DNA of 64,000 nucleotides from Bacteriovoracia bacterium (GTDB taxonomy: Bacteria; Bdellovibrionota; UBA1018; CAIPTA01): positions 224,001-288,000 of the forward strand of contig JBFWVL010000002.1 in assembly GCA_050246755.1 (NCBI GenBank), in the 5' to 3' direction. Below the pieces are notes generated by a model. The model had not been told where the DNA came from. It saw nothing but the letters and a program-made list of their open reading frames with translations, and made no database searches. This document shows, piece after piece, positions 5,003 through 23,822 of the stretch (the first letter of the stretch is position 1; each line of letters opens with the position of its first letter). Both the position numbers and the translations under genes were made by a program.

Positions 5003-5031
5003 GACGCAACTTGTCTATCACGAGAGTTTTA

Positions 5032-5183
5032 CTAGTTGGTATACTTGATTGTTGTTTTCGCAGAGATTCTCGCCTGAATTCGCGCGGGTTCAGGCGAGTG
5101 GTATTAATCCGAAACCATTTTAGAAATTCTCGAATAACTATCGGGCTTTACGATGGTCCATACACAATCAAGTAGACCAGGTC
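5032..5183. mobile_element. MITE-like non-autonomous insertion with terminal inverted repeats and a 9-bp direct repeat
   Basis: IR TGGTATACTTGATTGT (5037-5052) vs ACAATCAAGTAGACCA (5164-5179), 15/16 match; AGAGTTTTA flanks both sides (5023-5031, 5184-5192); internal 10-bp hairpin CTCGCCTGAA/TTCAGGCGAG (5069-5098). Confidence 0.65.
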
Positions 5184-6300: not shown

Positions 6301-6302
6301 GG

Positions 6303-6602: not shown

Positions 6603-6717
6603 TAGGCGGAGACTAGCATGGCTCCCGGCTCCTCGTGAGGGGAGGAAGAAAAAAGAGGTGGTTTTTCGGGGCACAAATGCCCATAATTTTTAAAGCCACA
6701 CGGGCGCGGGGGTTTTC

Positions 6718-8555: not shown

Positions 8556-8622
8556 TTCATTCTCCCGAAATTTATTTTCTTACCGGTTTGCCCGCGCCCC
8601 GGCAAAATGGCAAGCTGATCTT

Positions 8623-9987
8623 ATGGGGTTGATGCGCTTTTCGTTGATGGGGTTACTATTCCTTTTTTCCGTCCAGCCGGCGGGGGCCGCCGAGTGGAAA
8701 TTTTCGCTGAACGGCGAAACCGAGGTCACCGGCCTGCATTGGCAGGAAAAAGTTTTGCCCGATAATCGGCAGAACCGCTATCTGCTGAACCAGAAGCTGC
8801 CGATGACGTTGCGCTACGGGCGCGCGTGGCGGTTCCGCCTACAGCCGATTGCGCTCTTCGATCCTAATAATATCTCCAAGAGCGAGCGCCTATTCTGGGA
8901 TATCCAGGAGGGCTACCTCCAGTACCAGGCGCTACCCTGGACGGTGCAAGTGGGGAATAATATTTTCACCTGGGGCGATACCGACGTGTTCAATCCGCTC
9001 GACGTGGTGAACCAGCGCCGCTATTTCGATCCCTTCCAGTCCGAAAAGCTCGGCGCCCCCGCTCTGATGGTGAAGCGGGAGTTCGAAACATTTTTCGTGG
9101 AAGCGATTTATATCCCGAAGCAGAGAAAAACGTTATTGCCCGGCGAGCAGAGCCGCTGGCTCCCGCGCGACGTGTATAAAAGCCGCAGTTACCGCGTGCC
9201 GATCGTAGCCGGTGGAGTCACGAAAACCTACAATACCACCCTGAATTTACCGTCGGTGGTGAACTACCATTATATGAAGCCCGAGGAGCGCGACAATGCC
9301 CTCGACAATAGTTTCGGCGGCCGTTTCAAATTCCGTTTTCCCGGTTTCGACTGGACGCTCGCGGCGTTCCAGGGAACCGCTCCCACACCCGCGGTAAACG
9401 TAAAGGAAGTAGGGCTCCTTGGTAATATCGCGATTCTGTCGTCCACCGAAATCTCGGCCACTATGCTGGAGCCCGACCTCACGGTGCAGGCCACGTACTA
9501 TCAGTCGCGCATGGGCGGCACCAGTTTCACGCTCGTGGCCGGAGATTTTTTGGTGAAGGGCGCCTCGGCGTATACTTCTCCCGTAAAGCACGCGGGCGAT
9601 TTACCGGCGAAAACGCTCGAGAACGCCCTTGGCCTAGAGCGCACCTTCAGCGTGGGCAAGGGATCGCTTACCGCCTTGGCGCAGGGAACCTACGTGAAGC
9701 GCGGAGACCGCGTGGACACGAACTCCGTTTCGCTAGCCCGTATGTTCGATCGGGCCGGCATGGGGGCCCTTCGCTGGTCGGCGAGCGAGAAGCTCACGGT
9801 ACTGGCTTCTTACCTGCGCGATATCCGTTACAAAGGCAACGTCGTGCATGCCGACGCTTCCTATAAGATCGCCGATGGCTGGCGCGCCAAAGTGGGGGCG
9901 GATTTTCTTTCCGGCCCCACCGAGACGCCGATCGGTACCTACGGGCGTAACGACCGGATTACTTTGTCTTTGAATTCTCAGTGGTGA
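8623..9987 (+). CDS. Putative outer-membrane beta-barrel (DUF1302-like)
   Basis: Signal peptide; QVGNNIFTWGDTDVFNPLDVVN motif; amphipathic strands ending in C-terminal Trp; next to an MMPL/LolA-like gene. Confidence 0.65.
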   Translation: MGLMRFSLMGLLFLFSVQPAGAAEWKFSLNGETEVTGLHWQEKVLPDNRQNRYLLNQKLPMTLRYGRAWRFRLQPIALFDPNNISKSERLFWDIQEGYLQYQALPWTVQVGNNIFTWGDTDVFNPLDVVNQRRYFDPFQSEKLGAPALMVKREFETFFVEAIYIPKQRKTLLPGEQSRWLPRDVYKSRSYRVPIVAGGVTKTYNTTLNLPSVVNYHYMKPEERDNALDNSFGGRFKFRFPGFDWTLAAFQGTAPTPAVNVKEVGLLGNIAILSSTEISATMLEPDLTVQATYYQSRMGGTSFTLVAGDFLVKGASAYTSPVKHAGDLPAKTLENALGLERTFSVGKGSLTALAQGTYVKRGDRVDTNSVSLARMFDRAGMGALRWSASEKLTVLASYLRDIRYKGNVVHADASYKIADGWRAKVGADFLSGPTETPIGTYGRNDRITLSLNSQW

Positions 9988-11512
9988 ACTGAAGCCCGAG
10001 GTTTCCGCCGCTCTGGAGCTGCCAGTGTTCGGGCACCAGCTTGAGCGCTTTGCCCACCACGAAGGTGGGGAAGGCGAGGGTGAGGCCCTCGGCACTCAGC
10101 GATTCCTTCGCCGCGTCGGCCATAGTCTGGGCGGCGATTCTCTTCGTTGGGTTATACTGAGCCACGTATTGCTTGGCCCAGCTATAGCTCATGGGAAGCT
10201 CGTCGGCGGTAACGAGGAAATCCACTTTCCCGCCCTTTTGCAGCTTCATCTTCGATTGGCCCTGGAGCAGGGTTCTGAACTCCACGTAGGGAGTATAGGT
10301 TCCTTTTACCGGGGCGAACATGCGGATCGCGAGCGGGAGCGTGAGATCACCCGAGATCGTGTCGGTGTCGGTCGCTTTTTCGTTGTCGAAAGAGGGCGGG
10401 CCGTTGGGCACGAAGTTAAAGGCGAAGGTAGTATTGGTCGGGAACTTCATGAGGTCCGGCCAAGCCCAGAATTGTTTCCAGCGCGACTGCATGAATTCCT
10501 GGAACGCAGGAATCTCGTAGGAGCGCAGTGAATATTCCAGCTTGCCCGCAAAGTATTCTCCCATCATCAGCGCGCGGATCGTAGCGAACGGCATCATCAA
10601 TTGAGGAATGGCAGTGCTTTGGGTTGCCGCTTGCGAGGTCTTGGCCGCGGTGCCAACACCGAGCTTAAATTCCTGCACGATGTTTTGGTTGGGGGCTACG
10701 TACGGATACACGAAACGCAGCTGGCCCTCGAGCATCAGGCCGCCGCCGCTCTCGCGGGCGTTTTTGGGCTCATAGTAAAGCTTGAGGTAATCTTTTTGCG
10801 TGGGCAATTCGCGCTCGCTGAGCAGGAGAATGCTGGCGTCTTTGCTCCACTGCACGAACTTAGTTTCCAGCTCACCGCGAACTTGCGCATCGAAATTCTG
10901 GAAACTCGCGAGGGCATTGAGCGCGTACTCACGCACGTTCACGTCTAGGCCTTCGGTGCCGCTGCAGGAAATGCTTTCCACTTCCCAAGCGCCTTGCTGC
11001 CAGTCTGCGTTGAAGGAGGGCATGGAGAGCTTTACTTGTCCGTCGAGCACTTCGGCGCGGATGGTGGCGGCCACGGAGCTAAGGCCCGGCTTGAGGCGCA
11101 AGGAAACGTTGTGGCATTCGGCGTCGAGTTTCACGCGGTAGCGAACGCCATCGATCACGCGGTCGACGATTTGCGAGGCCGATATATTAGCTACCGTGAT
11201 GCGCGCGCCGAGCTGATTGCTGGCGAGGGTCCATTCCCGGGTATTGGCGTTAGTACGCTTGGGCACGGGGAAGGCGTAGTTCATCTCGGCGGTGATTCCG
11301 CTGATCTGAATGGGAAGCCCCGGATTGATCGTGAAGTTGGGAATCGCCACGCTCTGGGTGCCGCTGAGGCTCTGCCAGAAATCTTCGATCACTTTGTCGA
11401 AGAGGCTCTCGGTGAGCTGGAGTTGGAATTCACTTTTCACTTCCCAACGCGCTTGGGCGGCGAGGGGGAGAGCGGCGAGCAGTAACGGCAGCGTGTAAAA
11501 AAGTTTTCTCAT
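9959..11512 (-). CDS. Secreted hypothetical protein (517 aa)
   Basis: Signal peptide MRKLFYTLPLLLAALPLAAQA; long beta-rich ORF. Confidence 0.8.
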   Translation of the reverse strand: MRKLFYTLPLLLAALPLAAQARWEVKSEFQLQLTESLFDKVIEDFWQSLSGTQSVAIPNFTINPGLPIQISGITAEMNYAFPVPKRTNANTREWTLASNQLGARITVANISASQIVDRVIDGVRYRVKLDAECHNVSLRLKPGLSSVAATIRAEVLDGQVKLSMPSFNADWQQGAWEVESISCSGTEGLDVNVREYALNALASFQNFDAQVRGELETKFVQWSKDASILLLSERELPTQKDYLKLYYEPKNARESGGGLMLEGQLRFVYPYVAPNQNIVQEFKLGVGTAAKTSQAATQSTAIPQLMMPFATIRALMMGEYFAGKLEYSLRSYEIPAFQEFMQSRWKQFWAWPDLMKFPTNTTFAFNFVPNGPPSFDNEKATDTDTISGDLTLPLAIRMFAPVKGTYTPYVEFRTLLQGQSKMKLQKGGKVDFLVTADELPMSYSWAKQYVAQYNPTKRIAAQTMADAAKESLSAEGLTLAFPTFVVGKALKLVPEHWQLQSGGNLGLQFTTENSKTK

Positions 11513-11590
11513 GGGGCTATTTTCTCACTTCGATAGCTAAAGTTAGTAAGAACCTAAAGTGCCTACAGGAACGAACCGAGTAGTAGCTGA

Positions 11591-11629
11591 TTGACTCGCT
11601 CCATTATTAAATGTTAACATGGGTTAACA
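11591..11629 (+). promoter_or_regulatory. Putative sigma70 promoter with palindromic operator in the divergent intergenic region
   Basis: TTGACT (11591-11596); palindrome ATGTTAACAT (11611-11620) followed by a second GTTAACA; AT-rich. Confidence 0.35.
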
Positions 11630-11682
11630 ATATTGCAATGGGCGACGATATTAAATTTTAAGAAAACCCGAGAGCCCGACAC

Positions 11683-14600
11683 ATGAAAATTAGGCAAATT
11701 ACTGAAGTTACTAAGTTTGTTATGAAAAATGCCAAGCGTTTTTCGATTTTAGTGATTTTGGCTTTTTTGGGTTTGGGGGCCATATCCGCCTTATCACTCT
11801 CTAAGCTCAAGACCGAATACTCCATGCGTCAGTTCTTGCCGCCCCACCATAAACTGATGGAGACCGACGACGCCCTCAAGGCTCGTTTCCAGCTTCCCGA
11901 CCTCGAGCCCTTCTTCGCCCTCATTAGTATTCCTGAAAAAGAGACCGGCAACTGGTTCCAGCCCGAACGCATGGCCAAGCTCAAAGAAATTACCGAGGGC
12001 CTCAATAAGTATGAGGGCGTGAGCCGTGCCATCAGCTTAGCCACGATCGAGGGAGCCTCGTCGAGCCCGGAAGGAATCACCGTGGGGCGTCTGCTCGATC
12101 TCACGCCCGCGAAGGATTGGGAAAATCGCGTGCTTAAAGATCCTATCCTCAGTCCGCACCTGATCACCGCCGACGGCCGCACCGCCGTACTCGCCATGGT
12201 CAACCAAGTGGGCCTCACGCAGAAAGCCAGCACCGCAATTCAGGACGAAACCCGCGTGCGTATCCAGGCCGCCTTTCCTGGCTACCAGCTTCGCCTCGGG
12301 GGCATTCCCGTGGTGCAAACCGAAATGAGCCAAATTCTCGGCAAAGAACTAAAAAATTTCCTCGTGCTCTCGCTGCTCGCCAGCCTTTTCACCCTCATGC
12401 TTTTCTTCCGTTCTTTCTCGAGCGTGCTGATCCCGCTTATCCTATTGTTACTCGCGAACTTCATCAGCTTGGCTTGGATGGCGTGGACGGGCACCGCCTT
12501 CACCGTACTTTCGAGTACGCTGCCCGTGCTCGTGGCGCTCACGGTAGTTTCGATGAGCGCGCACACGATGCTGCGCTACGCTTCGGACTGGCAGCTCGCG
12601 CTCCGCTCCCAAGAGAACCCGAACCCGATCCGCGTGCTTTTCCATTCCTACGCCGGACTGCTATTGCCGAACTTCCTCACGGCCGTAACCACCTCCATCG
12701 GATTTTTCGCGATCGCCTTCGCTAATATTCCCCTTGTGCGCCAATACGGGATCACCGTGGGGATTTCCATTTTCGTTTGCTGGTTCACCGTGATCGGCGC
12801 CTTGCTCCCGCTGCTCGTTCTCTTTCCCGTGCCCCAGGTGCGCGACTGGACCGAAAAGCGCGCCAGCTGGGCCCTCTGGATTACCGCTCACAGCCGAAAA
12901 GTGGTTTTCGCCGTGGTGGCTCTCAGCGCAGTTTGCTTATTTTTCGGGCGTCAGCTCAACTGGTCGGCGCAGTTATTCGACGATCTTCCCAAGGGCCACG
13001 AGGCCCGCGCCACCACCGAGTTCGTGGATTCCCATCTTGGCGGCATGATTCCCCTCGATATCGTGGTGGAGCGCGATGAGGAAAATGCCTGGAACGATCC
13101 CTCGGCTCTCGCTAGATTCGATGAGCTCGCTAATGATTGGCGCAAGCATCCCGCCGTTGGCTCCGTGACCGGCCCGCAGGATTTCATTCGCGTGGCCGGT
13201 AAAGTGCAGGGGCGGGGCCTCGCTTCCACCCGTCAAGAGGCCGCTGAGTACGCGTTCCTCTACGGATTCGCCGCCGATAATCCTTATAAGCAATACGTAA
13301 CGTCGGACGGCCGCGCCGCCCGCATCAACTTGCGCTTGCATGATATCCCCGGCGATAAAATGGCCTTGGTGGTGCAGCAGCTCACCGAGCAAACCCAGGC
13401 GAAATTCCCCGGCTGGAAGGTAACGCCCGGCGCGATGGCCACCACCGTGCATGTGCTCAATAACGAACTTTGCCGCGAATTGATCTGGGGTTTCTGGCAA
13501 GCCTTGCTCTTAATCGCCGTCGTTCTTGCTTGTGTATTCCGCTCCGTGCGCTGGACGATCGCGGCGGTACTGCCGAACTTGGTTCCCGCGTTCTTACTTC
13601 TTGGCGCGCTGTACCTAGGCGCTACGCCGATTAAGCCTGGCATCGCCCTGATCTTTTCGATCGCCCTCGGTATATCCTTCGACAATACCGTGTATCTCAT
13701 GGGGCGTTTACGCCTTCTGCGGGACCGCTCCGCCACGAAAAAAATCATGGTCGCCAAAGCCTGGTACCAAGAAGGCAATCTCTGTCTCTTTTCCTCGCTC
13801 GCGTTGTCTTCCGGTTTTCTTGTATTCTTGGCCTCGTTCTTCTCGCTCAATCAGCAGTTCGGTATGTATATGCTCATCGCCATCCTGGGATCCCTCGTCG
13901 GAGATCTCGTGCTCATGCCCGCAATGCTTGCGGCCTTCCCCCGGATGCTGGAGAATAGAGCCAAACCCGAACTTCAAAAGGAGAATGATATGTCTGAGAG
14001 AGCGATCGCCGCCGGTATTGCACTGGCATTTTTCACCAGCAGTTTCGCCTACGCTGCGGTGGATTTGAAAGACGCGAAGTCCATTCTGAAAAACGTAGAG
14101 AAAAATATGTCGGCTACCGACGAAGTGGCCAACGTGAAGATGACCATCACCGAAGCCGACGGCACGAAAAAAGATCGTGGCCTGCAGATCAGCCGCAAGG
14201 GCAAAGACGCAGACCAAAAAGTAATGGTGCGCATGAACGCTCCCGCCGATCTAAAGGGCACCGCGCTGCTCTCCGTTTCGAAGGGCAAATCCAGTGACCA
14301 GTGGCTCTATTTGCCCTCGAGCAAGCAGACGCGCCGGATCCAGAGCGGTAACCGCAGCGGCGGTTTCATGGACTCCGAGATGAGCTACGAAGACATGGGC
14401 ACCAACGCCGACGCGAAATTCGAGAGTAAAGTTCTACCCGAAGAGACGATCGCCGGCCGCAAGTACTCCGTGATCGAGAGTATTCCGAAGGGCGAGAGCT
14501 CTTACGGCAAAGTGGTGACCTGGGTAGACCAGGGAACGTACCTCGTGGGCAAGATGCAATACTTCGACAAGTCGATGAAGCCGCTCAAGGTGACGAACTT

Positions 14601-14766
14601 CACGGGTTACAAGCAATACGACAAGGGAGTATGGCGCGCGCAAAAAGTGCAGGTGCAGAATCTGCAAAATAAACGCGGCACCACCCTCGAGCTTTCCGAC
14701 CTGAAACTTAACAAAGGCCTCGACGACGCCGAATTCACCGAGAGCGCCCTCACCGAAGGCGATTGA
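11683..14766 (+). CDS. MMPL/RND-family transporter fused to a C-terminal outer-membrane lipoprotein-sorting (LolA-like) domain
   Basis: Two RND TM repeats (IALGISFDNTVY); C-terminal PADLKGTALL...QWLYLPSSKQTRRI...FMDSEMSYED typical of LolA-like sorting proteins. Confidence 0.85.
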   Translation: MKIRQITEVTKFVMKNAKRFSILVILAFLGLGAISALSLSKLKTEYSMRQFLPPHHKLMETDDALKARFQLPDLEPFFALISIPEKETGNWFQPERMAKLKEITEGLNKYEGVSRAISLATIEGASSSPEGITVGRLLDLTPAKDWENRVLKDPILSPHLITADGRTAVLAMVNQVGLTQKASTAIQDETRVRIQAAFPGYQLRLGGIPVVQTEMSQILGKELKNFLVLSLLASLFTLMLFFRSFSSVLIPLILLLLANFISLAWMAWTGTAFTVLSSTLPVLVALTVVSMSAHTMLRYASDWQLALRSQENPNPIRVLFHSYAGLLLPNFLTAVTTSIGFFAIAFANIPLVRQYGITVGISIFVCWFTVIGALLPLLVLFPVPQVRDWTEKRASWALWITAHSRKVVFAVVALSAVCLFFGRQLNWSAQLFDDLPKGHEARATTEFVDSHLGGMIPLDIVVERDEENAWNDPSALARFDELANDWRKHPAVGSVTGPQDFIRVAGKVQGRGLASTRQEAAEYAFLYGFAADNPYKQYVTSDGRAARINLRLHDIPGDKMALVVQQLTEQTQAKFPGWKVTPGAMATTVHVLNNELCRELIWGFWQALLLIAVVLACVFRSVRWTIAAVLPNLVPAFLLLGALYLGATPIKPGIALIFSIALGISFDNTVYLMGRLRLLRDRSATKKIMVAKAWYQEGNLCLFSSLALSSGFLVFLASFFSLNQQFGMYMLIAILGSLVGDLVLMPAMLAAFPRMLENRAKPELQKENDMSERAIAAGIALAFFTSSFAYAAVDLKDAKSILKNVEKNMSATDEVANVKMTITEADGTKKDRGLQISRKGKDADQKVMVRMNAPADLKGTALLSVSKGKSSDQWLYLPSSKQTRRIQSGNRSGGFMDSEMSYEDMGTNADAKFESKVLPEETIAGRKYSVIESIPKGESSYGKVVTWVDQGTYLVGKMQYFDKSMKPLKVTNFTGYKQYDKGVWRAQKVQVQNLQNKRGTTLELSDLKLNKGLDDAEFTESALTEGD

Positions 14767-14784
14767 TCTCTAGTTTGTGTTCTT

Positions 14785-14820
14785 AAGAGCCGGTCACCTA
14801 TAAGGGTGGTCGGCTTTTTT
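14785..14820 (+). terminator. Rho-independent terminator
   Basis: Stem AGCCGGTCACC/GGTGGTCGGCT followed by a T tract. Confidence 0.75.
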
Positions 14821-14860
14821 GTGCCTGTTTTGCACGCGCATGCTGCCGCCCCGTCCGCTG

Positions 14861-15040
14861 GAATACCTCTGCCCCGGAGAGTGCCTTCGCTTTTGCGAAT
14901 ACCTCTGCCCCGCGCCAGCAACTCTGCTCCTTAAAATACCTCTGCCCGGTGTGGGGGCAATCACCATCGTGTCAGATTTTCGTACGCGCCCACGTCTGCA
15001 TACCGAACACCGCTCTCCTAAAATACCTCTGCCCCAGAGG
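14861..15040 (+). repeat. Cluster of four direct repeats (A)ATACCTCTGCCC(C) upstream of the HUH transposase (REP-like)
   Basis: Copies at 14863, 14899, 14936 (12/13) and 15023; spacing 36, 37, 87 bp. Confidence 0.9.
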
Positions 15041-15086
15041 CTTTACCCCACGCGGAAATGGCATGCTTCCCGCTCGGCCCGCCCGC

Positions 15087-15605
15087 ATGAAATTCCAAGT
15101 ACGTAAATGGAGTCCGCTCGAACACGGAGGTATCGTACGCAAGGGCCAGCGGAAACGCCGCCGCTATATGGATGTGAGTCGAACCCTGCACTTGGTGATG
15201 CGTTCTACTAAGGCCAGGGGCCACCGCAGTTTTATTAACCCGCGCAATAAGGGCGTGATCCATCTGCTGCTCATCGATACGGCCAATCGCTACGAGATAA
15301 AAATCTATAACTACGTGAACGTTGGCAACCATCTGCACCTTCACGTGCGCGGATGGAAACGCAAAAATCTCCAGGCATTCTTGAAAGTATTCCCGCAAAG
15401 AGTGATGTTCCACGTAACGGGCGCACGCAAGGGTCGCCCGCGCGGCAAGTTTTTCGATGAGATCGTCTATTCGCGCGTGGTGAACTGGGGCGGCGATTTC
15501 AAGCGCGTGAAAGAATATTTTTGGAAGAACACGCTCGAGGCGCTGGGATTCAGTCACGCCACGATCGTGAAGTGGCGCAGGGCCGCGCGGATAGTGCCGC
15601 CCTAA
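15087..15605 (+). CDS. Y1 HUH-family transposase (IS200/RAYT-like, stand-alone)
   Basis: HGG...RK..R...LHLVMRS, HUH motif GNHLHL, SRVVNWG, catalytic Tyr in EYFWKN; no tnpB; start set at MKFQV. Confidence 0.8.
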   Translation: MKFQVRKWSPLEHGGIVRKGQRKRRRYMDVSRTLHLVMRSTKARGHRSFINPRNKGVIHLLLIDTANRYEIKIYNYVNVGNHLHLHVRGWKRKNLQAFLKVFPQRVMFHVTGARKGRPRGKFFDEIVYSRVVNWGGDFKRVKEYFWKNTLEALGFSHATIVKWRRAARIVPP

Positions 15606-16408
15606 CGGACCAGCGGAAAGAAATCGAAGCTATATACGTAGGCCGTTTCTTCGGGAGACTTAGCGATCACGTCTTGGTTCTTTTTTAGATTTTCCAGCAG
15701 GGAAACTTTCACGCGCTCGGCATCTTCCCGTGAAAGGCTCACGCAGGCCGAGTAGTGCATGTCGTTGGTGCCCGCCGAGTCCATCGACTGAATTGAAAAT
15801 AGCCGCCAGTTGCTGTGCAGGTTCTTGATCAGCGGATCGGTGGCGGGTAGGTGCACGTGGCTCGGGCCGGCGGAGTAGTGGGTGCCCTTAAGCTTGAGGA
15901 TCCCGCAACCCACGAGGAAATCCAATTTCTCGTCGAGTTCGGCCGGATGCACGCGCAGGGCCTGGCTGAGCGCGAGTTTGGTCTGAAAAGACGGGATCGA
16001 GCAGAGTACGTGAATTGCGGCGTAGAGGTGGCTCGAGTGGAATCGCGCGGTGTCGCTCGCGGAAATACCGGTAGAGGGCCGCACTACTTTTGAGGGCGTA
16101 AGTTTCTGCGCGCGTTTAGCGGCGAGTAGAGTTTGAAATCGCTGGCGGGCTTTTGAGGAGCGGGCGCGGTCGCGGCAGACTAGGAGCGCGAAGTACTCGG
16201 CCTCGTCCTCGTCGTGACGAAGAAAATCATTCATGAGCTCGGCCTGTTCGGTGCTAAGGTCGGCTTTTCCCGAAAGAATTTGCGATAAATAGGTAGTGTG
16301 AACGGCCAAAGCGCGGGCCGCATCGGCGCGCATGCCCGAGCGATGACCCTGCTCGTCAAATCGTAACTTAAGGTAATCGCGGTAGTTTTGGGATTCGTAG
16401 ATTTTCAT
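15602..16408 (-). CDS. TIGR02147/DUF4423-family HTH protein
   Basis: YRDYLK...ARALAVHTTYLSQILSGKADLS.EQA HTH; LHSNWR; C-terminal VYSFDFFPL. Confidence 0.8.
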   Translation of the reverse strand: MKIYESQNYRDYLKLRFDEQGHRSGMRADAARALAVHTTYLSQILSGKADLSTEQAELMNDFLRHDEDEAEYFALLVCRDRARSSKARQRFQTLLAAKRAQKLTPSKVVRPSTGISASDTARFHSSHLYAAIHVLCSIPSFQTKLALSQALRVHPAELDEKLDFLVGCGILKLKGTHYSAGPSHVHLPATDPLIKNLHSNWRLFSIQSMDSAGTNDMHYSACVSLSREDAERVKVSLLENLKKNQDVIAKSPEETAYVYSFDFFPLVR

Positions 16409-16507
16409 ACCTGTGCCCTCGAGGTGTAGAGTTATTCTCTTATTTCAACCTGATGATTTAGTAAAATAATCTTTTCGCGCTTGTGGCCTGCACGTATAAA
16501 CAGTCTC

Positions 16508-17545
16508 ATGATGAAACTCATTTTGGTTTTGGGAATTTTCGGCGCGCTCCACGCACAGGCCGGCGTGATCAACGGCGGCGGGGGCAAAGGTATTCTCTGC
16601 GTGAACCCCGACGGCAGCCGCACGGTGGAGAGCCTCGATCGCTACGAAGCGAGGATCGTTTGGCGCTACTCGGTGCCCGAGAGCAAGGATTTCGACGCCG
16701 AGTTTTTGCGGATGATGTCGAGGGCCCACTATGCTTTCAATGGGAACGCCCACCAAGCGCCCGGTCCTTATTCGGCCAAAGAGCACGAAGAATTTTTGTT
16801 GCTGCTCAAGGTATTCCAGGCCCAAATGAATTTTCTTCCAGTAGGCACTCACCTCAAACCCACCGATGACGCCGGGGAAGTGGTGATTCCGCCCGCAAAC
16901 TGCGCCATCACGCAGGTGATCCATTACCTCGATGAAACCGAACGTACCGGGCAGATCCTGGTAGACAAAGAATACTGGGACCTTCTCTCCCCGCAGGATC
17001 AAGTCGGTTTTTTCATGCATGAAGTGGTTTACAAAGATTTTCGCACTTCCGGCGAAACTTCCTCTCTGCGCACCCGTAAACTAGTGGGCCGTTTGCTTTC
17101 CAGCGAGGTGTATCCAAATCCTTATTCTCCACTCTGGGGAGCGCCCAAGATGCTGCATTGCCTGGGCAAGATGGACGATTATGGATGGGGAACTTCCAGC
17201 GGGCTGGATTTTTACGTAGTTCCTGCTGTGGATAAGCCGGGCCGCAATGCGGCTTTGCTCGTGTTCACTACCATCGGCGACGACGGCATGATGGCCGCCA
17301 CCACGGCGCTCAGTCCTTTCGAGTACGAAAGCTTTACTGGTGATCCGCAGTACGCCAGTTACGGGTCGGCCAGCTTGTCGGTGAATTCATTTTATGGTCC
17401 GCGCAGCCTGGTGCTCAGGATGGGGGGAGAAGGAGCTGGCTCTCCGCCGCCGCAGCCTTCCCTGCGGAAGATGTTTATGCGCTTCGATCGTAAAGGACAA
17501 ACCCAGGAAACGGAGTTTTCCTGCCAACCCGAGGAGAGACAATGA
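16508..17545 (+). CDS. Secreted hypothetical protein (Bdellovibrio-type GGGG N-terminus, HE motif)
   Basis: Signal peptide then GVINGGGGKGILC; FFMHEVVY; divergent from the TIGR02147 gene. Confidence 0.8.
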   Translation: MMKLILVLGIFGALHAQAGVINGGGGKGILCVNPDGSRTVESLDRYEARIVWRYSVPESKDFDAEFLRMMSRAHYAFNGNAHQAPGPYSAKEHEEFLLLLKVFQAQMNFLPVGTHLKPTDDAGEVVIPPANCAITQVIHYLDETERTGQILVDKEYWDLLSPQDQVGFFMHEVVYKDFRTSGETSSLRTRKLVGRLLSSEVYPNPYSPLWGAPKMLHCLGKMDDYGWGTSSGLDFYVVPAVDKPGRNAALLVFTTIGDDGMMAATTALSPFEYESFTGDPQYASYGSASLSVNSFYGPRSLVLRMGGEGAGSPPPQPSLRKMFMRFDRKGQTQETEFSCQPEERQ

Positions 17546-17925
17546 AGTACTTGCTCATCGCCATGCTGTTCGCCAATACCGTTTTCGCCGCCGATAATTG
17601 CGGTCCGCAGGAAGGAAAATTCGGCTGGGAAAAAGCCGTGAAAGTAGGGGACGTAGTCACCTTCTTCAACCCGCGTCTCAATCTCGACGGGGTGAATCTC
17701 ATCCCGATCGCTTTCGACGACGGCGTGACCGAGTCCTTTTCGAACGGCGTTTGCAAAGCCCTCGGCAAGAAGACGGGTACCGTAGGCCAGATTACTCGAG
17801 CGTACGAGCTGGAAACCACACTCGCGGTTTTCATCGATGCGGCGGGCCGCGTGGCGTATATGCATGAAATTGGAAGAAATTCTGGATCCTATACTGGAAT
17901 CGTAAACTCGATTTCCTGCCGCTAG
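17542..17925 (+). CDS. Small secreted hypothetical protein
   Basis: Signal peptide MKYLLIAMLFANTVFA; start overlaps the upstream stop; GGAG RBS. Confidence 0.75.
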   Translation: MKYLLIAMLFANTVFAADNCGPQEGKFGWEKAVKVGDVVTFFNPRLNLDGVNLIPIAFDDGVTESFSNGVCKALGKKTGTVGQITRAYELETTLAVFIDAAGRVAYMHEIGRNSGSYTGIVNSISCR

Positions 17926-17957
17926 TCATTACATAAAATTTAAGGAGAACGATAACC

Positions 17958-18437
17958 ATGAAATTTCATGCAACGGCACTGCTTTGCCTAGTCCTAACTG
18001 CCTGTGGAGCGGAGGAGCCTAGAGACCAAGAAATAAGCACCGATACTGCCACTATCACCGAGAACCTCGTTGCGGCACCGATGCCCGGCGATGGACGGCT
18101 AAACCAGACAGAGTTTAAGTCGCTCCATTGCGTGGCGCTTGTGAGTTCCTCGAATAACCCGGCGCGGGTTTTGGCGAGCGTGAAGTGCGATGGGTTCGGC
18201 GTCGTAAGCGGGGACTACGTGCTCGAATGCCAAGACAACAGGCTCTGCGTTCAGCGGCAATCCGTGCACGGAGGGCAGACAGAAGCGGTTTTTTCCGAAA
18301 ATTTCATGCAGATGATCCTGACGATTTCCGACTCGAATGGAAAGAAAGTTTATAGTGATAACTTCGTTTGCGAGAAGGGTTGTGCGCTGGAATTTCAGCC
18401 GCCTTCGTTCGAGAAAGGCACTCAGCCACGGCCCTAA
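17958..18437 (+). CDS. Hypothetical lipoprotein
   Basis: Lipobox LTAC; AAGGAG RBS. Confidence 0.75.
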   Translation: MKFHATALLCLVLTACGAEEPRDQEISTDTATITENLVAAPMPGDGRLNQTEFKSLHCVALVSSSNNPARVLASVKCDGFGVVSGDYVLECQDNRLCVQRQSVHGGQTEAVFSENFMQMILTISDSNGKKVYSDNFVCEKGCALEFQPPSFEKGTQPRP

Positions 18438-19675
18438 AGATTGCGAAATGCCTCGGGCGTGCCCATGCCCCTGATTTCGTCGCCGGCCTTGGTGCTCCCA
18501 TGGGTATGGAATTCCCGCCGCCGTTTTCGGTAAGAAACACTCACGCGCTCAAACAGCGAAATACCGTGCATTTCGGCCGGGGCAGGCGAAACCGCCGGCC
18601 CGCGCAGATCGCTCAGCGGGTTCATCGCGCCCGGCGAGATTTTTTCAATCGAAGCTAGGTGGCGCGCCCCTACGTCTACGGGCGCGGAAGCACCGAAGGC
18701 CTGCGCGTAGCCTTCCGAAATACCTCTGCCCCGAGGCGAGGGTGCTAGGGGAGTGGCCTCCCTAGTAGGCGCCAAAACCTGTGCCCCGGCTAGTAGGGCA
18801 GGTCCGCCGCTAGCGTTGAACCTAGTCGACTGGCCCGCACTCGTCACGGATACCTCTGCCCCAGAGGCGGGCGTCACGCGGCCCTCCAGCGCTTTCGCCA
18901 CCACGGGGCCGGGGTCCGCGAGCGTTTCTTCGACGGCGTTGCGTTTGGTTCGATCCAGTTTTCCCACGAACGGTGATTCGTTCACGATCGCCGCAAACGG
19001 CTCGCCAGCAAAAGCACGCCGCATGATCTCGCCGTTCTCGTAGCCAAGGTAGACGGATCCGTCGGGGAAGCGCTCCGATAATTCTTTCCACCCGAGCGCG
19101 TTCACCGCCGTGGACCTAGAAACCCCCGAACGGCTTTCTTCCGGCGCCAATGTGGGCACCATCACCGGGGCGCCGCTCGCCATTTCGGTGAGCCCAGTCA
19201 TGGGAGAAACCAGCGCGTCGGTACGCGTTTTCGTAGAGTAGCAGCCCGTCATCGACGAAGCGTATTGGCTGCTGAACGCCATCCAGTCGGTCATCGTGAA
19301 GCCATCGGCGCCCCAGGAAGTGCATTCGCCCGCGCCGTCGCGGGTAAGGCAATTGGCGGCGTTCCGGAGGGCTTGGCTTAGTCCCACGCATTCCGGGCTT
19401 TTGGGAGAAGCCGCGCAAACGGAATCCGTGCGCCCGCCTACGTTCGTGCCCACGCAGCCTCCCATTACGTTGGAGCCCATCACGAAGGCATTGGCTTGGG
19501 TGGACTCGGAATCCACATCTTCTCTATAGAGCTGGTTATTGTATTTCGTTACCTCGTACTCGTCGGAGCGTTTGGAATCGCCGGCGCCGGTCGTTTTACC
19601 GTTCTCGCCAACTAGATCGTTCGCGGCGAAGCCAAGGCCGGGGCAGAGGTATAAAATTAAGAAGAGGCGAATCAT
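18434..19675 (-). CDS. Secreted Cys-containing hypothetical protein with C-terminal SLFERVS..Y motif
   Basis: Signal peptide; shares blocks with the upstream paralogue; coupled start/stop. Confidence 0.8.
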   Translation of the reverse strand: MIRLFLILYLCPGLGFAANDLVGENGKTTGAGDSKRSDEYEVTKYNNQLYREDVDSESTQANAFVMGSNVMGGCVGTNVGGRTDSVCAASPKSPECVGLSQALRNAANCLTRDGAGECTSWGADGFTMTDWMAFSSQYASSMTGCYSTKTRTDALVSPMTGLTEMASGAPVMVPTLAPEESRSGVSRSTAVNALGWKELSERFPDGSVYLGYENGEIMRRAFAGEPFAAIVNESPFVGKLDRTKRNAVEETLADPGPVVAKALEGRVTPASGAEVSVTSAGQSTRFNASGGPALLAGAQVLAPTREATPLAPSPRGRGISEGYAQAFGASAPVDVGARHLASIEKISPGAMNPLSDLRGPAVSPAPAEMHGISLFERVSVSYRKRRREFHTHGSTKAGDEIRGMGTPEAFRNL

Positions 19676-20015
19676 AGTTCCGTGCCCCCGCGATTCACCA
19701 GCTCGCGCACATCTTTGGGCTCGGATTTTTTTGGCAGGCGCTTGATATAGTCTTCCATGCCCCGAAGGTTCGGCACCTGCCGCTGGTAGACGGTGCTCAC
19801 CCGGTCAAAGAGCGTGAGGTCGAGGCCGAGGGAATAGGGATTGTGCTTGAGCGCGCGCACGAAGTTTCCGTTGCTTGCGGGCCTGGGCGATACCTCTGCC
19901 CCGGAAGAGGTGGCCGGTTCGCGATTAGCGGTGCTGCCAATGATGATCGCGCCGTAGCCGCTATCGGGTGCGCCCCAGCGCCGGGTACGCTTGCTAGCCG
20001 AAATACCTCTGCCCC
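18720..20015. repeat. Five exact intragenic copies of ATACCTCTGCCCC plus one degenerate copy
   Basis: + orientation at 18720, 18850, 19890, 20003; reverse at 19640-19652; degenerate AAACCTGTGCCCC at 18775. Confidence 0.9.
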
Positions 20016-20625
20016 CGAGGTGGGTGGTCTCGGCCAGCGCGTCGGCGGGGGTGTCCACCACGGGGTAGGGAGTTTTCGCGGCGAGCTCCATGGTGTCCTG
20101 CTCGTGGGCGGGAATCTGCGTCCACATCGGCGAGGAGCTCAGTACGGACTCAAAACTTTCGCCCTCGAGGGTACGGCGCAGGATGCTTCCTTCGCGTAGT
20201 CCGAACGAGCTCGCGCCTTCTTCGAGGGAGGCCAGGAGGGCGCGGAAATTGGGATCGGCGAGCGCTTCCTGGGCACCGGAAGAATCGTTGTTGCCATACT
20301 GGTTGCGCACGCACTGGTGAAATACCGCGAGGTAACCCGCCGCAACCGATACCCACTGCGACTGCGTATTTTGGCGATACGCGTAGGCTAGGCAGGCCTC
20401 GCCGGCCCGCGCGCGGCACTGGTCTTTGCGGAGAGCATTGCGGAGGGCGAGCTGCATGCCCACGCAGGCATCGGCTTCGTGGTCGCTGGCGCAGTCGCCG
20501 TCGAAGCGGCCGCCGATCGCGGTTTCGATGCAGGAGAGCGTGGGTTTGGCGCTCGCGCCGGAGCGCAGAGGTTTTGCCTCCGCCGCGGTAGTAGCCAGGA
20601 GCAGGATGAAAACGAAGCTGTTCAT
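19672..20625 (-). CDS. Secreted Cys-containing hypothetical protein with C-terminal TLFDRVS..Y motif
   Basis: Signal peptide MNSFVFILLLATTAAEA; block CVGMQLALRNA shared with the neighbour. Confidence 0.8.
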   Translation of the reverse strand: MNSFVFILLLATTAAEAKPLRSGASAKPTLSCIETAIGGRFDGDCASDHEADACVGMQLALRNALRKDQCRARAGEACLAYAYRQNTQSQWVSVAAGYLAVFHQCVRNQYGNNDSSGAQEALADPNFRALLASLEEGASSFGLREGSILRRTLEGESFESVLSSSPMWTQIPAHEQDTMELAAKTPYPVVDTPADALAETTHLGGRGISASKRTRRWGAPDSGYGAIIIGSTANREPATSSGAEVSPRPASNGNFVRALKHNPYSLGLDLTLFDRVSTVYQRQVPNLRGMEDYIKRLPKKSEPKDVRELVNRGGTEL

Positions 20626-20626
20626 C

Positions 20627-21745
20627 CTAGAACTCGAGCGCGGCCGTGCCCTTTAGGTCGAAGATCGGCCGCGGAGCATCCGCTTGCTCGCGTTTCACGC
20701 CGAACATGAGAGGCGTCTTTTTATGGTACTGCGCGCGCACCATTTCGAAGATGCTCCGGCTGCTGATCCCGTTGCGATCGAGAGCCGCTTGCACTTCGGG
20801 GCTGATGCTGCCGTCTTTGGTGCCGCCACCCAGCGCCACGCCGCCGCCGGTATCTCCGGCGCCGGGCTTCCCGAAGAGCGAATCGAAGTCAGTGGTGGGG
20901 GCCGCGGAATTGATCTTCCGGTCACCACCGCTGGCGCTATACGCGCCTTCGCCAGCGAGGTCCTGGGCGTTGAGGCCGAGCCGGTCCATCACTTCTTCGC
21001 CGGTGAGGGGATTGGTATTGGCCATCGTGGAATCAATCATCTTCTGGAGCTCGGATTCCGATTTTCCGATTTTTGAAGAGCCGGCGAGAATTTCCGCGGG
21101 GCTTTTGCCCGCGTTCAAGCCATTGATGAGGTCGTCGCGGCTCAGGCCGGTTTTGTTTTCGAAGTCGTTGAGAATCTCCCCGATTTTTCCGCCATTGCGA
21201 GCGAGGGCCGGGTCGATTTTGATCGAGCTGCCGTTGCTCTCGTTCGACAAATTTCCGGGGCCAACGCTTTTTACGCTCTCGGCGGTGGGGCCGAGGTTAT
21301 TCGCGTATCCGCCGGCCTGCTGTCCGTTCTTACGCATATTGCTGGCAGCGGCGAGGGCGGCCATTCCGGCCATCATCAGCGCGATCCCCGCGGCCATGAG
21401 TGCCATACCGGGAGCCACGGTGGGAGGGCTCGCCATCATCGCGGCCCCGGCCGCCATCATTGCCATACCGGCGGCGATCGCCGCCAGGCCGAGGCTAGTG
21501 GAAGAGCTATCGCCTTGCTGATTGAGCTTGTTCGCGTCGTTCTGGTGCTGGAGCTGGGTCACGGTCGGCGCGGGAGGAGTGGGCATGGTGCTGGTGAATT
21601 TGTTGGCATCGGTTTTGGTGCTGGTGGAGCCGATATTCACGTCTCCCACGCTCACGCCGGCGGCCATGGCGTCTTCCACGCAAATATCGGCGGACGAAGT
21701 CCACAGAACCAAGGCGACAATCAATGTCCAAATGCCTAATTTCAT
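20627..21745 (-). CDS. Secreted hypothetical protein with Ala/Met-rich hydrophobic hairpin and C-terminal SIFEMV...Y motif
   Basis: Start set at MKLGIW; hydrophobic segment LGLAAIAAGMAMMAAG...; Gly-rich linker. Confidence 0.8.
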   Translation of the reverse strand: MKLGIWTLIVALVLWTSSADICVEDAMAAGVSVGDVNIGSTSTKTDANKFTSTMPTPPAPTVTQLQHQNDANKLNQQGDSSSTSLGLAAIAAGMAMMAAGAAMMASPPTVAPGMALMAAGIALMMAGMAALAAASNMRKNGQQAGGYANNLGPTAESVKSVGPGNLSNESNGSSIKIDPALARNGGKIGEILNDFENKTGLSRDDLINGLNAGKSPAEILAGSSKIGKSESELQKMIDSTMANTNPLTGEEVMDRLGLNAQDLAGEGAYSASGGDRKINSAAPTTDFDSLFGKPGAGDTGGGVALGGGTKDGSISPEVQAALDRNGISSRSIFEMVRAQYHKKTPLMFGVKREQADAPRPIFDLKGTAALEF

Positions 21746-21907
21746 ACGATACCCCCATTGGATGGACGCGGCTCGTCCCCGATCCAATAATCCCTATTCT
21801 TTTAATCGACTATCTGTGTGAGTTTCTTTAGAAAAAGGTCTAAAAGCGGGTGGATTTATATGGTAAAAAGTCGCCATTCCAAGATTAAGGAAAAGTCCTT
21901 AGATTTT

Positions 21908-21983
21908 GCCGATGTAGCTCAGTTGGTAGAGCAGCGCTTTCGTAAAGCGCAGGTCGCAGGTTCGAGTCCCGTCATCGGCTCCA
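21908..21983 (+). tRNA. tRNA-Thr(CGT)
   Basis: Cloverleaf GCCGATG...CATCGGC-TCCA; anticodon stem GCGCT-TTCGTAA-AGCGC; TTCGA T-loop. Confidence 0.97.
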
Positions 21984-21990
21984 ATTATGG

Positions 21991-22012
21991 CCTGTCTCCG
22001 GATGGAGACAGG
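21991..22012. terminator. Hairpin between tRNA-Thr and the convergent ACP-like gene
   Basis: CCTGTCTCC-GGAT-GGAGACAGG perfect 9-bp stem; weak U tract. Confidence 0.5.
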
Positions 22013-22025
22013 GGAATGGTCCATT

Positions 22026-22286
22026 TTAATAAGATTTATTTAGCGTAGCCAGATGGGCGGCGATTTCGCCTACCGTGAGCTCGCGGCGCGCCGACATTTT
22101 CTCGTTTTGCCGCAAGAGCAGCAGTTCCCGCAAATTCAATTTTCGGCCGCTCCGTTTTTCCAGCTCGGAGAAGAAATCCACTAGATCGAGGGAACTGAGG
22201 GTCAGCGGCGTGTCTGGCTCAGCGGAAATTTGGGTTCCGGTAACCTCGAGGTAGGACTCCTGGATGAGCTCAACGGCGTTCGGCAT
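22026..22286 (-). CDS. Acyl carrier protein-like small protein
   Basis: 86 aa; DTPL..LSSLDLVDF..ELE resembles the phosphopantetheine attachment motif. Confidence 0.6.
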   Translation of the reverse strand: MPNAVELIQESYLEVTGTQISAEPDTPLTLSSLDLVDFFSELEKRSGRKLNLRELLLLRQNEKMSARRELTVGEIAAHLATLNKSY

Positions 22287-22370
22287 GGCGCCCTAAGCTT
22301 ATGCGCGATCGAGTGCGCTAGGCAATCGGCTTATTGAGTTTGGGAGGGGCAGGGGATATATTTTTTCAAA

Positions 22371-23822
22371 ATGCTTCCAACTTCGGGTTTGCGACTCATT
22401 CCGGCCCTCGACGAAAACGAGCGTTTCGTTCTTTTCGCCCAATCCTTCACCGGCAAGCTGCTTCTCGCGCTCCTTTCCGCGGCCCTGCTTTGCGCATTCC
22501 GTCTCGAATTTTCGCTTCCTTACAGTCTGCTCGCTTTTTTCCTGGTCTGCGCGCCGCTTAGGGCGGAGCTCAAGCTCCTGCTCGCTGGCGCCGCGGGCTG
22601 GATTTTTTTCGAGCGGCCCGCCGCCTACTACGCGCTCTACGACAATCTAATCAACCCCGTTTTCGTGGAAAAGTTTTTGGGCACGGGGGCCTATTCGTAC
22701 GAATTTTCGGTAGTCTACCGCGCGGTCACGGCCGTGGTTCTGTTCGCGCTCCTTTCCGCGTTGCTCTTCTTCCGGCGTAATGCCAAGGTATTTTGGCTGG
22801 CCACCTTCTTATTCGCCGTTTCCGTATTCTTTCTCCCAAAAACCGGCTGGGCCGGGCTCATCCTCTGGACGAGTGCGCTCATCTTCTTCAAGGGCCTGGT
22901 GGGAATTTTTTTCGCCCTGGACCCCGATGAGATTCCGAAAAAATCCGGGCTCGCGGGAAAAGCCGTGGTGGCGTTCCAGCTCCTCGGGCACGGCATCTCC
23001 GTTCCGCTCCTGCAAAGCCCAGCCCAGCTCACCGATTTCCCGCACCGCGCTCGCTGCCAAATCAAGGGCGTGAAACTCTTGTTGTGGGGCCTTCTCCTGC
23101 ACCTAGGCAACGAAACCCTGATGCAATTCGTGTTCGGCAATTCCCAGCTCCCCGCCATCCGCGCCCTCGTTCCCCAATCGCTTGGCTGGGTAAATTATAT
23201 CCAGGCGGGGATGGACGCGTTCAACCTCAGGCCGGCTTCGCCGCTAAAAAACTGGGCCGTGCTCCTGCTCGTGAACTGGGATTACCTCCTGCGCACCGCC
23301 GTGATCACCAGCTTTTATATCGGGATCATCCGGCTCAGCGGGATCTACCTGCCGCGCTGGATTTACCGGCCCTATCTCGCGGTATCGTTCAACGATTACT
23401 TCCGTCGCTGTTTTTATTTCTACAGCGAATTCCTTCTGGCCGTCTTCTACGCTCCGGCGTGGAAGTGGTTGCGTGGCACTCGTCTCGCGCGCCCGGTACG
23501 GATATTTTTAGCCACGTTCTTTGCGGTGGGGCTAGGGGGATGGCTTTTCCACATCGCGCGCTGGGTTAACCGGATCCTCTATTTCGAGCCCAGCTATTAT
23601 TTAGGGCTTTACCTATCGATCACGCCGTATTTTTTTCTCCTCGGTTTGTTCACGGCGATCTCGGCGCTGCGAAATACGCCACGAGCTTGGCGTCCGGCGA
23701 GCCTGCTCTGGGTGCCCGTCTACTTCGTGTTTCATTCCTTAGTGATGGTGGCGTTCGCTCTCGAGAAAGACATGGGCGTCACGCAGAGGCTAGCGTTTCT
23801 CGCTTCGCTGGTCGGACGCTAA
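22371..23822 (+). CDS. MBOAT-like membrane-bound acyltransferase (AlgI/DltB-like, divergent)
   Basis: Polytopic; RLSGIYLP...RPYLAVSFNDYFRR...FYAP and GGWLFH (putative catalytic His). Confidence 0.65.
   Translation: MLPTSGLRLIPALDENERFVLFAQSFTGKLLLALLSAALLCAFRLEFSLPYSLLAFFLVCAPLRAELKLLLAGAAGWIFFERPAAYYALYDNLINPVFVEKFLGTGAYSYEFSVVYRAVTAVVLFALLSALLFFRRNAKVFWLATFLFAVSVFFLPKTGWAGLILWTSALIFFKGLVGIFFALDPDEIPKKSGLAGKAVVAFQLLGHGISVPLLQSPAQLTDFPHRARCQIKGVKLLLWGLLLHLGNETLMQFVFGNSQLPAIRALVPQSLGWVNYIQAGMDAFNLRPASPLKNWAVLLLVNWDYLLRTAVITSFYIGIIRLSGIYLPRWIYRPYLAVSFNDYFRRCFYFYSEFLLAVFYAPAWKWLRGTRLARPVRIFLATFFAVGLGGWLFHIARWVNRILYFEPSYYLGLYLSITPYFFLLGLFTAISALRNTPRAWRPASLLWVPVYFVFHSLVMVAFALEKDMGVTQRLAFLASLVGR

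Follow-up and report, generated by a model that had tools for sequence, protein, structure and literature searches.

A word of 13 bases, ATACCTCTGCCCC, recurs within a 64,000-nucleotide (nt) stretch of a Bacteriovoracia bacterium genome (GenBank assembly GCA_050246755.1, contig JBFWVL010000002.1, positions 224,001–288,000), and most of its copies lie inside protein-coding genes, where the same DNA is read in different registers. The stretch is termed the window, and its own position numbers are used below. The question raised by this locus is how one DNA word came to occupy such sites. The word is associated with a Y1 HUH (IS200/RAYT-like) transposase gene of 172 codons at positions 15087–15605 (+ strand). 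Copies are clustered locally around this gene, they are at derived and tolerated positions in the coding sequences, and they are conserved at the DNA level. The word is probably the recognition element of the Y1 enzyme, with new copies arising preferentially near the gene and being filtered by protein tolerance.

The window contains 12 copies of the word with one mismatch or none, where 0.03 are expected, and none of 100 shuffled sequences had 12 such matches. The 3.55-Mb assembly (10 contigs) has 11 exact copies, and nine of these are found within 13.9 kb, at window positions 6158–20015. A first-pass annotation, made from the letters of the window, had placed the word at 18720(+), 18850(+), 19640(−), 19890(+), 20003(+) and 6158(−); the exact 13-mer is present at each of these positions. 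Further copies are at 5313, 14936 and 16581 (one mismatch) and at 16407 and 18775 (two mismatches), and there is a direct array of four copies at 14863–15035.

Eight copies with one mismatch are found genome-wide. Three of them (5313, 14936, 16581) are in the cluster, and the five outside it are close to chance (about 4 by an arithmetic that assumes uniform base composition). Hits with two mismatches number 74 in the genome, and uniform composition predicts about 74, i.e. they are at chance level. Two-mismatch copies were accepted only with other evidence: 18775 because a diverged strain, X3 (described below), has the exact-motif peptide there, and 16407 because the downstream hairpin arm GAGG is present. 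A third such hit in the cluster, at 6928, was left open. A search with the pattern ATACCTYTGYCCC showed 11 of 14 matches in this genome to be within 9.8 kb of the Y1 gene, and the reversed control pattern gives 1. A scan of genome contigs (596 Gb) with an exact 14-mer yielded 120 single matches in unrelated taxa, which is chance level and uninformative.

Two exact copies lie outside the window, where about 0.1 would be expected by our own arithmetic. One, at C1:327431, is apparently intergenic. The other, at C5:60998–61010, is far from the cluster, in the Pro-rich linker of a TonB-like 224 amino acid (aa) open reading frame; it is read NTSAP, in the same register as the DTSAP encoded at 6158.

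The 13-mer is the core of a fuller repeat form, rAATACCTCTGCCCC(n)GAGG. Beyond the 13 positions, A is present at −1 in 9 of 14 copies, and G is present at +13 and also at +14 (9/14 each). GAGG follows at a distance of 11 nt or less in 6/14 copies, where the background is 4% (p = 1e-5). In its full form the repeat is a short hairpin, which is perfect at 15023 and 18850 (CCTCTG-CCC-CAGAGG), and the word is the 5′ arm of a short hairpin in about half of the copies. The repeat is similar to a repetitive extragenic palindromic (REP) sequence but minimal. Eleven of the 14 copies are on the + strand, which is G-rich throughout the contig. Under the customary skew rule, such a strand is the lagging-strand template, which is the strand reported as the substrate of IS200/IS605 enzymes in two accounts of these elements (PMC6006769, PMC5027513). 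The strand bias gives weak support to an action of the Y1 enzyme.

Nine intragenic copies are present in four genes. Recomputation from the coordinates of the open reading frames shows that they are read in four registers, as had been noted for RGRGI/GGRGI, GAEVS, LYLCP and DTSAP. Gene 18434–19675(−) has four copies. Three are on the + strand, so that the reverse complement of the word is read: an exact copy at 18720–18732 (phase 1, RGRGI, residues 315–319, variable linker), the two-mismatch copy at 18775–18787 (phase 0, GAQVL, also in the linker), and an exact copy with one of the two perfect hairpins at 18850–18862 (phase 0, GAEVS, residues 272–276). The fourth, at 19640–19652(−), is an exact copy in the sense orientation; it is read in phase 2 as LYLCP (residues 8–12), in the signal-peptide-like N-terminus. 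The adjacent gene 19672–20625(−) has two exact copies on the + strand, both in its variable linker, at 19890–19902 (reverse complement, phase 0, GAEVS, residues 242–246) and at 20003–20015 (reverse complement, phase 1, GGRGI, residues 204–208).

A third host is the conserved gene 5182–6378(−). It has an exact copy at 6158–6170(−), sense, phase 1, which encodes DTSAP (residues 70–74) in an indel-rich loop, and a one-mismatch copy at 5313–5325(+), reverse complement, phase 0, read GAKVL. The latter overlaps in part with a semi-conserved PGG.K segment and its status is less certain. The ninth copy is an inverted one with one mismatch at 16581–16593(−), downstream of the Y1 gene; it lies in the open reading frame 16481–17545 and is read in the reverse complement, phase 1, as GGKGI at residue 34.

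All these copies are in frame, in agreement with the first-pass annotation, which described the motif as not breaking the frame of its hosts. It should be noted that this property is partly trivial: the word shows zero stop codons across six frames on direct reading, and for this reason a copy of the same length cannot break a frame. As is found with intragenic repeats, the copies are wholly inside open reading frames and in frame, and their hosts have conserved orthologues.

The genes at 18434–19675 and 19672–20625 are paralogous, and the N-terminus of each looks by eye like a signal peptide. They have two conserved parts in common, a Cys-rich N-domain and the motif SLF.RVS..Y at the C-terminus. 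Same-genus orthologues of both show about 31–35% identity, and orthologues of both are also found in public protein collections. Except for the copy in the signal peptide, the copies in this pair are in an unalignable, indel-rich linker between the conserved parts. Gene 5182–6378 belongs to a widely conserved family (about 372 aa, 1628 hits), and its exact copy is in a variable loop. The earlier description of most sites as low-complexity linkers of secreted proteins does not apply to the host of 6158 and 5313, which is conserved and is not a low-complexity secreted protein. The broader proposal, that the motif lies in tolerant coding regions, agrees with the alignments, where the copies are in variable, indel-rich, non-conserved segments.

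DTSAP is found in none of 16 orthologues of gene 5182–6378 (43–75% identity), the nearest of which is 2 residues shorter at this place. GGRGI or GAEVS is found in none of three orthologues of gene 19672–20625 (~50% identity), in which the linker lengths are similar. An alignment to orthologues had been suggested as a way to tell whether the motif is ancestral. As the more distant orthologues do not have the encoded peptides, the intragenic copies are derived and not ancestral, and they are sited where the sequence is free to vary. They may have arisen by overwriting rather than by insertion, to judge from the linker lengths; the same-genus orthologues of the secreted proteins, at about 31–35% identity, are too distant for nucleotide-level ancestral states.

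The absence of the peptides from orthologues of each paralogue also bears on a simpler explanation of the copies, namely chance, codon bias, or linkers inherited from a common ancestor of the paralogues. The secreted proteins are indeed a paralogous pair, as this explanation would have it. The same word is however present in non-coding DNA upstream of the Y1 gene, and 12 copies are observed vs 0.03 expected, in four registers. Copy counts, clustering and registers refute this explanation, and it is left with virtually no probability.

The diverged strain X3 (~8%) is represented by a 21.5-kb contig from a wastewater run of another study. The contig is colinear with positions 14700–20700 of the window and displays 441 letter differences and 33 gaps over 5.8 kb. 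Its only joint is in the array upstream of the Y1 gene, where 58 nt are replaced. Nucleotide details are taken from the differences listed (40 of 449, all up to position 15122). Among these, positions 14899–14911 and the block 15004–15055 are unchanged amid dense changes, a G to C change at 14948 makes the third array copy (14936) perfect, and unrelated letters stand in place of the array copy at 14863.

The intragenic copies in X3 were judged from the proteins of the contig (87%, 94% and 96% identical). The residues encoded by exact copies are identical in 30 of 30 positions, vs 160 of 213 for residues within 20 aa of them (Fisher p = 3.6e-4). At 18775, X3 has GAEVS where the window strain reads GAQVL. 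The comparison of strains thus shows maintenance of copies as well as turnover. The residue counts, together with the four registers, bear out the earlier statement that conservation is at the level of DNA and not of the peptide.

The first-pass annotation had also proposed that the copies may diversify the secreted proteins or serve as sites of nicking or recombination at which the intervening segments are shuffled. There are features that fit: the order of two registers differs between the paralogues, the linker at 18775–18850 is rich in indels between strains, and copies are present in both orientations. However, X3 is colinear over 14897–20700, its single joint is in the upstream array, and contigs of a second sample are letter-identical to the window across 18680–19160. 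No inversion was seen in the four sequencing runs compared (4/4), and no joint or breakpoint was found at any intragenic copy; these comparisons use consensus contigs, in which rare rearrangements would be missed. In addition, an inverted segment read in frame would meet a stop after about 35 codons, and the hosts include a conserved protein without a visible signal peptide. Shuffling is therefore not borne out at the consensus level, and the proposed diversification of secreted proteins finds no support in the colinear X3 contig. This explanation is considered highly improbable. The lack of inversion in the runs compared also sets the locus apart from shufflons and other invertible systems, and no serine or tyrosine recombinase family was found among the open reading frames scanned across 983–21787, several of which have no family.

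The hypervariable linker between the copies at 18720 and 18850, where X3 shows a run of small deletions, has a further peculiarity. Five CTAG tetranucleotides are present within 78 nt (18745–18822), vs a genome mean of 1.4 per kb, and CTAGTAGG is found twice.

The Y1 gene at 15087–15605 encodes a protein with HLH at residues 81–83 and Tyr143-x3-Asn147. The residues H81-L-H83 (HUH), Y143 and Asn147 are invariant in 12 of 12 aligned members (the window protein and 11 relatives), and Y143 is in a helix (135–151) of the AlphaFold model. Profile matches of the window protein itself are weak: E = 0.05 with NCBIfam REP_Tyr_transpos, and E = 0.034 with PF01797 (Y1_Tnp), where the 14.7 bits are below the 23-bit cut-off. 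Among the family members, 11 of 12 match PF01797 at E up to 1 (best E = 1.2e-9). A profile search of the PDB gave ISDra2 TnpA at E = 0.01. The AlphaFold model (pLDDT 85) has IS608, IS200 and ISDra2 TnpA as its top Foldseek matches; there are 23 matches with E up to 0.001, and among the matches listed all are IS608, IS200, ISDra2 or Sulfolobus Y1 transposases. The E. coli RAYT structure 4er8 compares with the model at TMq 0.55 and a root-mean-square deviation of 3.5 over 134 columns. In the ESM Atlas the protein is placed in Y1_Tnp clusters with Bdellovibrionota as the commonest phylum. The product is filed here under the Y1 superfamily only.

Of 41 related genomes searched, 24 contain members of this Y1 family, and the highest number of matches in a single genome is 19. 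A metagenome scan with the Y1 protein gave only one relative, of 1.4 kb, and no orthologous neighborhood. The window genome has a second Y1 paralogue at C1:164282–164746 (L024 8283–8747, minus strand), 31% identical; no motif array and no repeat family were found around it.

The array upstream of the Y1 gene (14863–15035, + strand) consists of four direct copies, at 14863, 14899, 14936 (one mismatch) and 15023. The last of these, which has the second perfect hairpin, is 52 nt before the ATG at 15087. The array fills the spacer between the terminator-like hairpin of an MMPL-LolA gene and this ATG. Several other readings of the array were tried and rejected: a CRISPR-like array (the repeat is too short), iterons of an origin (no Rep or plasmid context was found), and an origin or parS-like cluster (the window contains ordinary housekeeping genes and lies on an arm of uniformly positive GC skew).

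The Y1 frame is open through the upstream array (14787–15086; 272 codons in all), and there the copies would be read NTSAP, NTSAP, KYLCP and KYLCP. One-base deletions in X3 at 14770, 14772 and 14959 argue that the stretch upstream of the Y1 ATG is not coding.

The Y1 gene is part of an extra stretch, 14767–18433, seen by comparison within the genus. The stretch also contains a TIGR02147/DUF4423 helix-turn-helix (HTH) gene (15602–16408, −) and three small open reading frames with signal-peptide-like starts. It is absent at the same junction in three same-genus genomes (G001, G002 and G004), where the MMPL-LolA gene abuts the secreted-protein genes. A degenerate copy of the word, ATACCTGTGCCCT, followed by CGAGGT (hairpin), is at 16407–16419(+) and overlaps the start codon of the TIGR02147 gene. 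The HTH neighbor was considered as the binder of the word and rejected, as no such gene is present among 36 flanking open reading frames from 12 other Y1 loci.

Related words, of the form ..C..TGCCCC, are found upstream of homologous Y1 genes or flanking them. Genome G003, whose Y1 protein is 59% identical, has four upstream copies of AATACCTTTGCCCC, and these are the only four pattern matches in that genome. In G005 the Y1 gene is preceded by GAAAACCATTGCCCC and followed by two inverted copies of it, G004 has GTTACCACTGCCCC twice upstream and inverted downstream, and G024 has inverted ..CCTGCCCCAG.. arms at the gene. A loose form of the word, on either strand, is present at 17 of 29 Y1-family loci scanned (L001–L012 and L025–L042, less L024), and upstream of the gene at a later-fetched locus (L163) as well. 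In 12 aligned copies the word is on the strand of the gene, mostly 25–60 nt before the start codon. The degenerate pattern AAWAMCNWTGCCCC gives about four times the matches of its reversed control across 41 genomes (own tally), and it is found on the gene's strand within about 250 nt upstream of 13 Y1 genes in 9 genomes (own comparison of tables). Among the flanking genes (36 open reading frames at 12 loci, many without a family) the only shared Pfam family is SpoVR, beside the G003 and G004 genes. Since the flanking genes share no other family, the word belongs to the Y1 gene and travels with it. The link of the motif to the transposase proposed at first pass thus holds, by the upstream array, the word at homologous genes, and the clustering near the Y1 gene.

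Clustering is replicated independently in another genome of the genus, G002 (2.7 Mb), where all three matches to ATACCTYTGYCCC are within 8.7 kb of its own Y1 gene; one of these copies is inside a 578-aa open reading frame, where it is read IPLP, and one is apparently intergenic. Clustering of the word around the Y1 gene is seen in three species, and intragenic copies are seen in two.

Two observations on the relatives may be added. Upstream of the Y1 gene in G002 (C17:29255–29308) there is an inverted word pair 41 nt apart, with 29255 on the minus strand and 29296 on the plus strand (one mismatch), which is a REPIN-like doublet. At the G004 locus L005 (2015–2041) the downstream inverted repeat is inside a C-terminal extension of the Y1 open reading frame and is read PGSGNP.

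The explanation considered probable, i.e. recognition of the word by the Y1 enzyme, can be put as follows. The Y1 gene would have its own cognate cis-repeat with the 13-mer as the core, in a system resembling a REPtron or TIRtron. We infer that the word, when single-stranded, is bound or cleaved by the Y1 protein, and that this protein is the source of new copies, with a preference for sites in cis; in this way the word would have spread to DNA up to about 9.5 kb from the gene in both directions. Such copies would persist only at places in a protein where any five residues are acceptable, e.g. in variable linkers, a loop, or the core of a signal peptide. Because the nearby DNA is mostly coding and the word is free of stop codons in six frames, survival at tolerant sites only would result in the four registers. 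The copies would then be preserved as DNA, either because binding is selected for or because the word is written again and again.

Several points weigh against this explanation. The intragenic copies in X3 are known at the level of protein. The hairpin is not conserved in other family members (by eye), and the strand bias is weak when the four array copies are left aside (7/10). G003 has an array but no dispersed copies. G034 has a repeated unit of about 930 bp (L033 1359–2292, L029 1366–2290; 80–93% identity) with a Y1 gene inside and terminal inverted repeats (TIRs), each about 45 nt long; the word is internal to it, about 225 nt from the unit end and about 35 nt before the ATG, separate from the TIRs. 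The word is internal also to a repeated unit of about 590 bp in G036. In these two genomes it looks more like a promoter-proximal operator than like a transposon end. Finally, we know of no precedent for the writing of 13–25-nt patches by Y1 enzymes. Editing of single-stranded DNA has been raised only as a possibility in the TnpA-Y1 literature. A more specific proposal, that the Y1 enzyme writes its own word into nearby single-stranded DNA as patch-like, length-neutral edits and that the cell keeps these copies, is regarded as improbable. The mechanisms described for IS200/IS605 in three accounts of these elements move whole elements as units (PMC3201880, PMC5027513, PMC6006769).

The TIRs of the G034 unit contain a small palindrome of their own (AGCCT..AGGCT), and several copies of the unit are at contig ends or have stop codons.

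An alternative is that the word is a protein-binding operator, with the Y1 protein as a regulator or with a host factor as the binder. The intragenic copies would then have arisen by point mutation and been selected in place, and a local field of binding sites would tune neighboring genes, cf. clustered centromere-like or roadblock sites. The family-wide location 25–60 nt before the start codon would suit an operator, as would a position between −35-like and −10-like hexamers at several loci (by eye), the internal word of G034 distinct from its TIRs, and the conservation of copies across strains. On the other hand, nine copies are identical at 13/13 positions in unrelated contexts, so that many substitutions would be needed for each, and sites are deep inside genes and in both orientations rather than at promoters. 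A consensus scan of 14600–16700 showed no sigma-70-like promoter, and the downstream hairpin arm of 6/14 copies is unexpected for a simple duplex operator. An operator is considered an unlikely explanation. A sigma-54 promoter reading of the word was rejected by eye, as one position too few separates GG from GC and most copies have no GG.

The orientation of the intragenic copies suggests another alternative, an action at the RNA level. Seven of the nine are antisense to the host mRNA, i.e. they are complementary to any transcript in which the word has the orientation of the Y1 gene. The pairing RNA would be either the leader of Y1 or a small RNA made from the array with its four sense copies; its partners would be reverse-complement copies in neighboring mRNAs, and sense copies near 5′ ends would pair within the same mRNA; genes 18434–19675 and 5182–6378 each have both orientations. 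Seven of nine is not significant, however, and the array of G003 is without targets. A search of 4500–22500 against Rfam showed no family at the copies, with only a tRNA and two sub-threshold hits in the whole region. The presence of the word as inverted DNA repeats that flank the gene in G004 and G005 argues for a role as DNA. RNA pairing is considered very unlikely.

The phenomenon is read here as a local, mostly intragenic and unusually short variant of the known intragenic repeats of REPtron/TIRtron type. REPtrons are Y1 genes with cognate flanking repeats (Nunvar 2010, PMC2817692), and a three-class taxonomy of TnpA-Y1 proteins has been given (Quentin 2018, PMC6006769). The present locus is similar to a REPtron in having a single Y1 HUH gene, low-copy in this genome, with a short, partly palindromic cognate repeat, and in that repeat and gene co-vary between species. 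RAYT repeat families usually exceed 100 copies per genome according to Nunvar (PMC2817692). In contrast, about 14 copies are found here, nearly all within 10 kb of the gene; in the whole 3.55 Mb there are 11 exact and eight one-mismatch matches. The core is 13–14 nt, the hairpin is weak, there is no GTAG head, and the copies are mostly intragenic. The RAYT signature next to the catalytic Tyr, given as NP(L/V)(R/K)xG (PMC2817692), is replaced by Y-x3-N-x-(L/F)-E-(A/S/G)-x-G, and Pro is absent in 12 of 12 aligned proteins. As to the layout, in the window four direct copies are upstream, and the sole inverted downstream copy (16581) is 976 nt past the stop codon, beyond another gene. A flanking-repeat layout as in REPtrons is found in the relatives G004 and G005.

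TIRtrons are described as Y1 genes flanked by inverted repeats, moderately abundant, and single or clustered (Di Nocera 2013, PMC3733652). Four relatives (G004, G005, G024 and G034, the last with the TIRs of about 45 nt) resemble them in having inverted repeats at the Y1 gene, but this is not clear in the window genome. The published TIR consensus is GGGGWSAS (PMC3733652); unlike this, the reverse complement of the word begins GGGGCAGA, with C at position 5 and not W. Most published TIRYTs carry a C-terminal HTH domain according to Quentin (PMC6006769), whereas the AlphaFold model of the 172-aa protein shows none, with no HTH-specific search made.

Intragenic REPs and the Rickettsia palindromic elements inside open reading frames, which encode 20–82 residues and are dispersed over the genome (PMC3733652), are comparable in that the repeats are wholly in open reading frames, in frame, sometimes twice per gene, and at variable positions. 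Unlike these published inserts, each copy here encodes about 5–8 residues, no length change is demonstrable, and copies are near the transposase gene. IS200/IS605 elements have subterminal hairpins and no TIRs, as stated in three accounts (PMC3201880, PMC5027513, PMC6006769). The catalytic fold is the same, and single-strand recognition and a preference for the lagging-strand template are to be expected. However, short words and not units are multiplied here, the only other gene copy (the 31% identical paralogue) has no motif array, and multi-copy relatives carry TIRs, e.g. the G034 unit. DNA uptake sequences number hundreds to thousands, are distributed genome-wide, and are tolerated in several frames, preferentially in less constrained parts of proteins. 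The present word is like them a DNA-level word in several reading frames and in less constrained protein parts, but there are 11 exact copies and nine are within 13.9 kb. No paper on this Y1 family or on such a pattern in Bdellovibrionota was found in the part of the literature listings covered, the intragenic REP lists of PMC3733652 having been left out.

What is unusual at this locus is the very short core, the confinement to the neighborhood of the gene, the mostly coding sites, and a measurable turnover between strains. The multiplication of REP-like repeats is still unsettled, and in most of the systems studied, the copies are old, extragenic and dispersed, and number in the hundreds. The repeat family described here is tiny, is young enough to differ between two strains, and is near its Y1 gene and mostly in coding DNA. 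It is therefore possible to date every copy and to read from orthologues what preceded it. The origin of individual repeats thus becomes directly testable, both as to insertion or overwriting and as to a preference of the enzyme for acting in cis. The analysis also delimits a clade of Y1 genes in Bdellovibrionota that have a conserved word upstream. If copying is patch-like, this would represent a new activity for HUH enzymes, in which a cis-acting editing of single-stranded DNA would mark, and perhaps destabilize, the hypervariable linkers of secreted proteins. If it is not, the locus is a small and tidy case of known intragenic repeats.

Two minor observations concern other parts of the window. 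One of the sub-threshold Rfam hits is a Twister-sister ribozyme at 8128–8222(−), with 25.2 bits vs a gathering score of 34 (E = 0.11). Next to the secreted-protein pair, at 20627–21787(−), is a gene for a conserved 386-aa membrane-associated protein which matches no family above threshold and includes a hydrophobic stretch rich in Ala, Met and Gly; it is always upstream of the secreted-protein pair in relatives, and in the window it is followed by a tRNA gene at 21908–21980.

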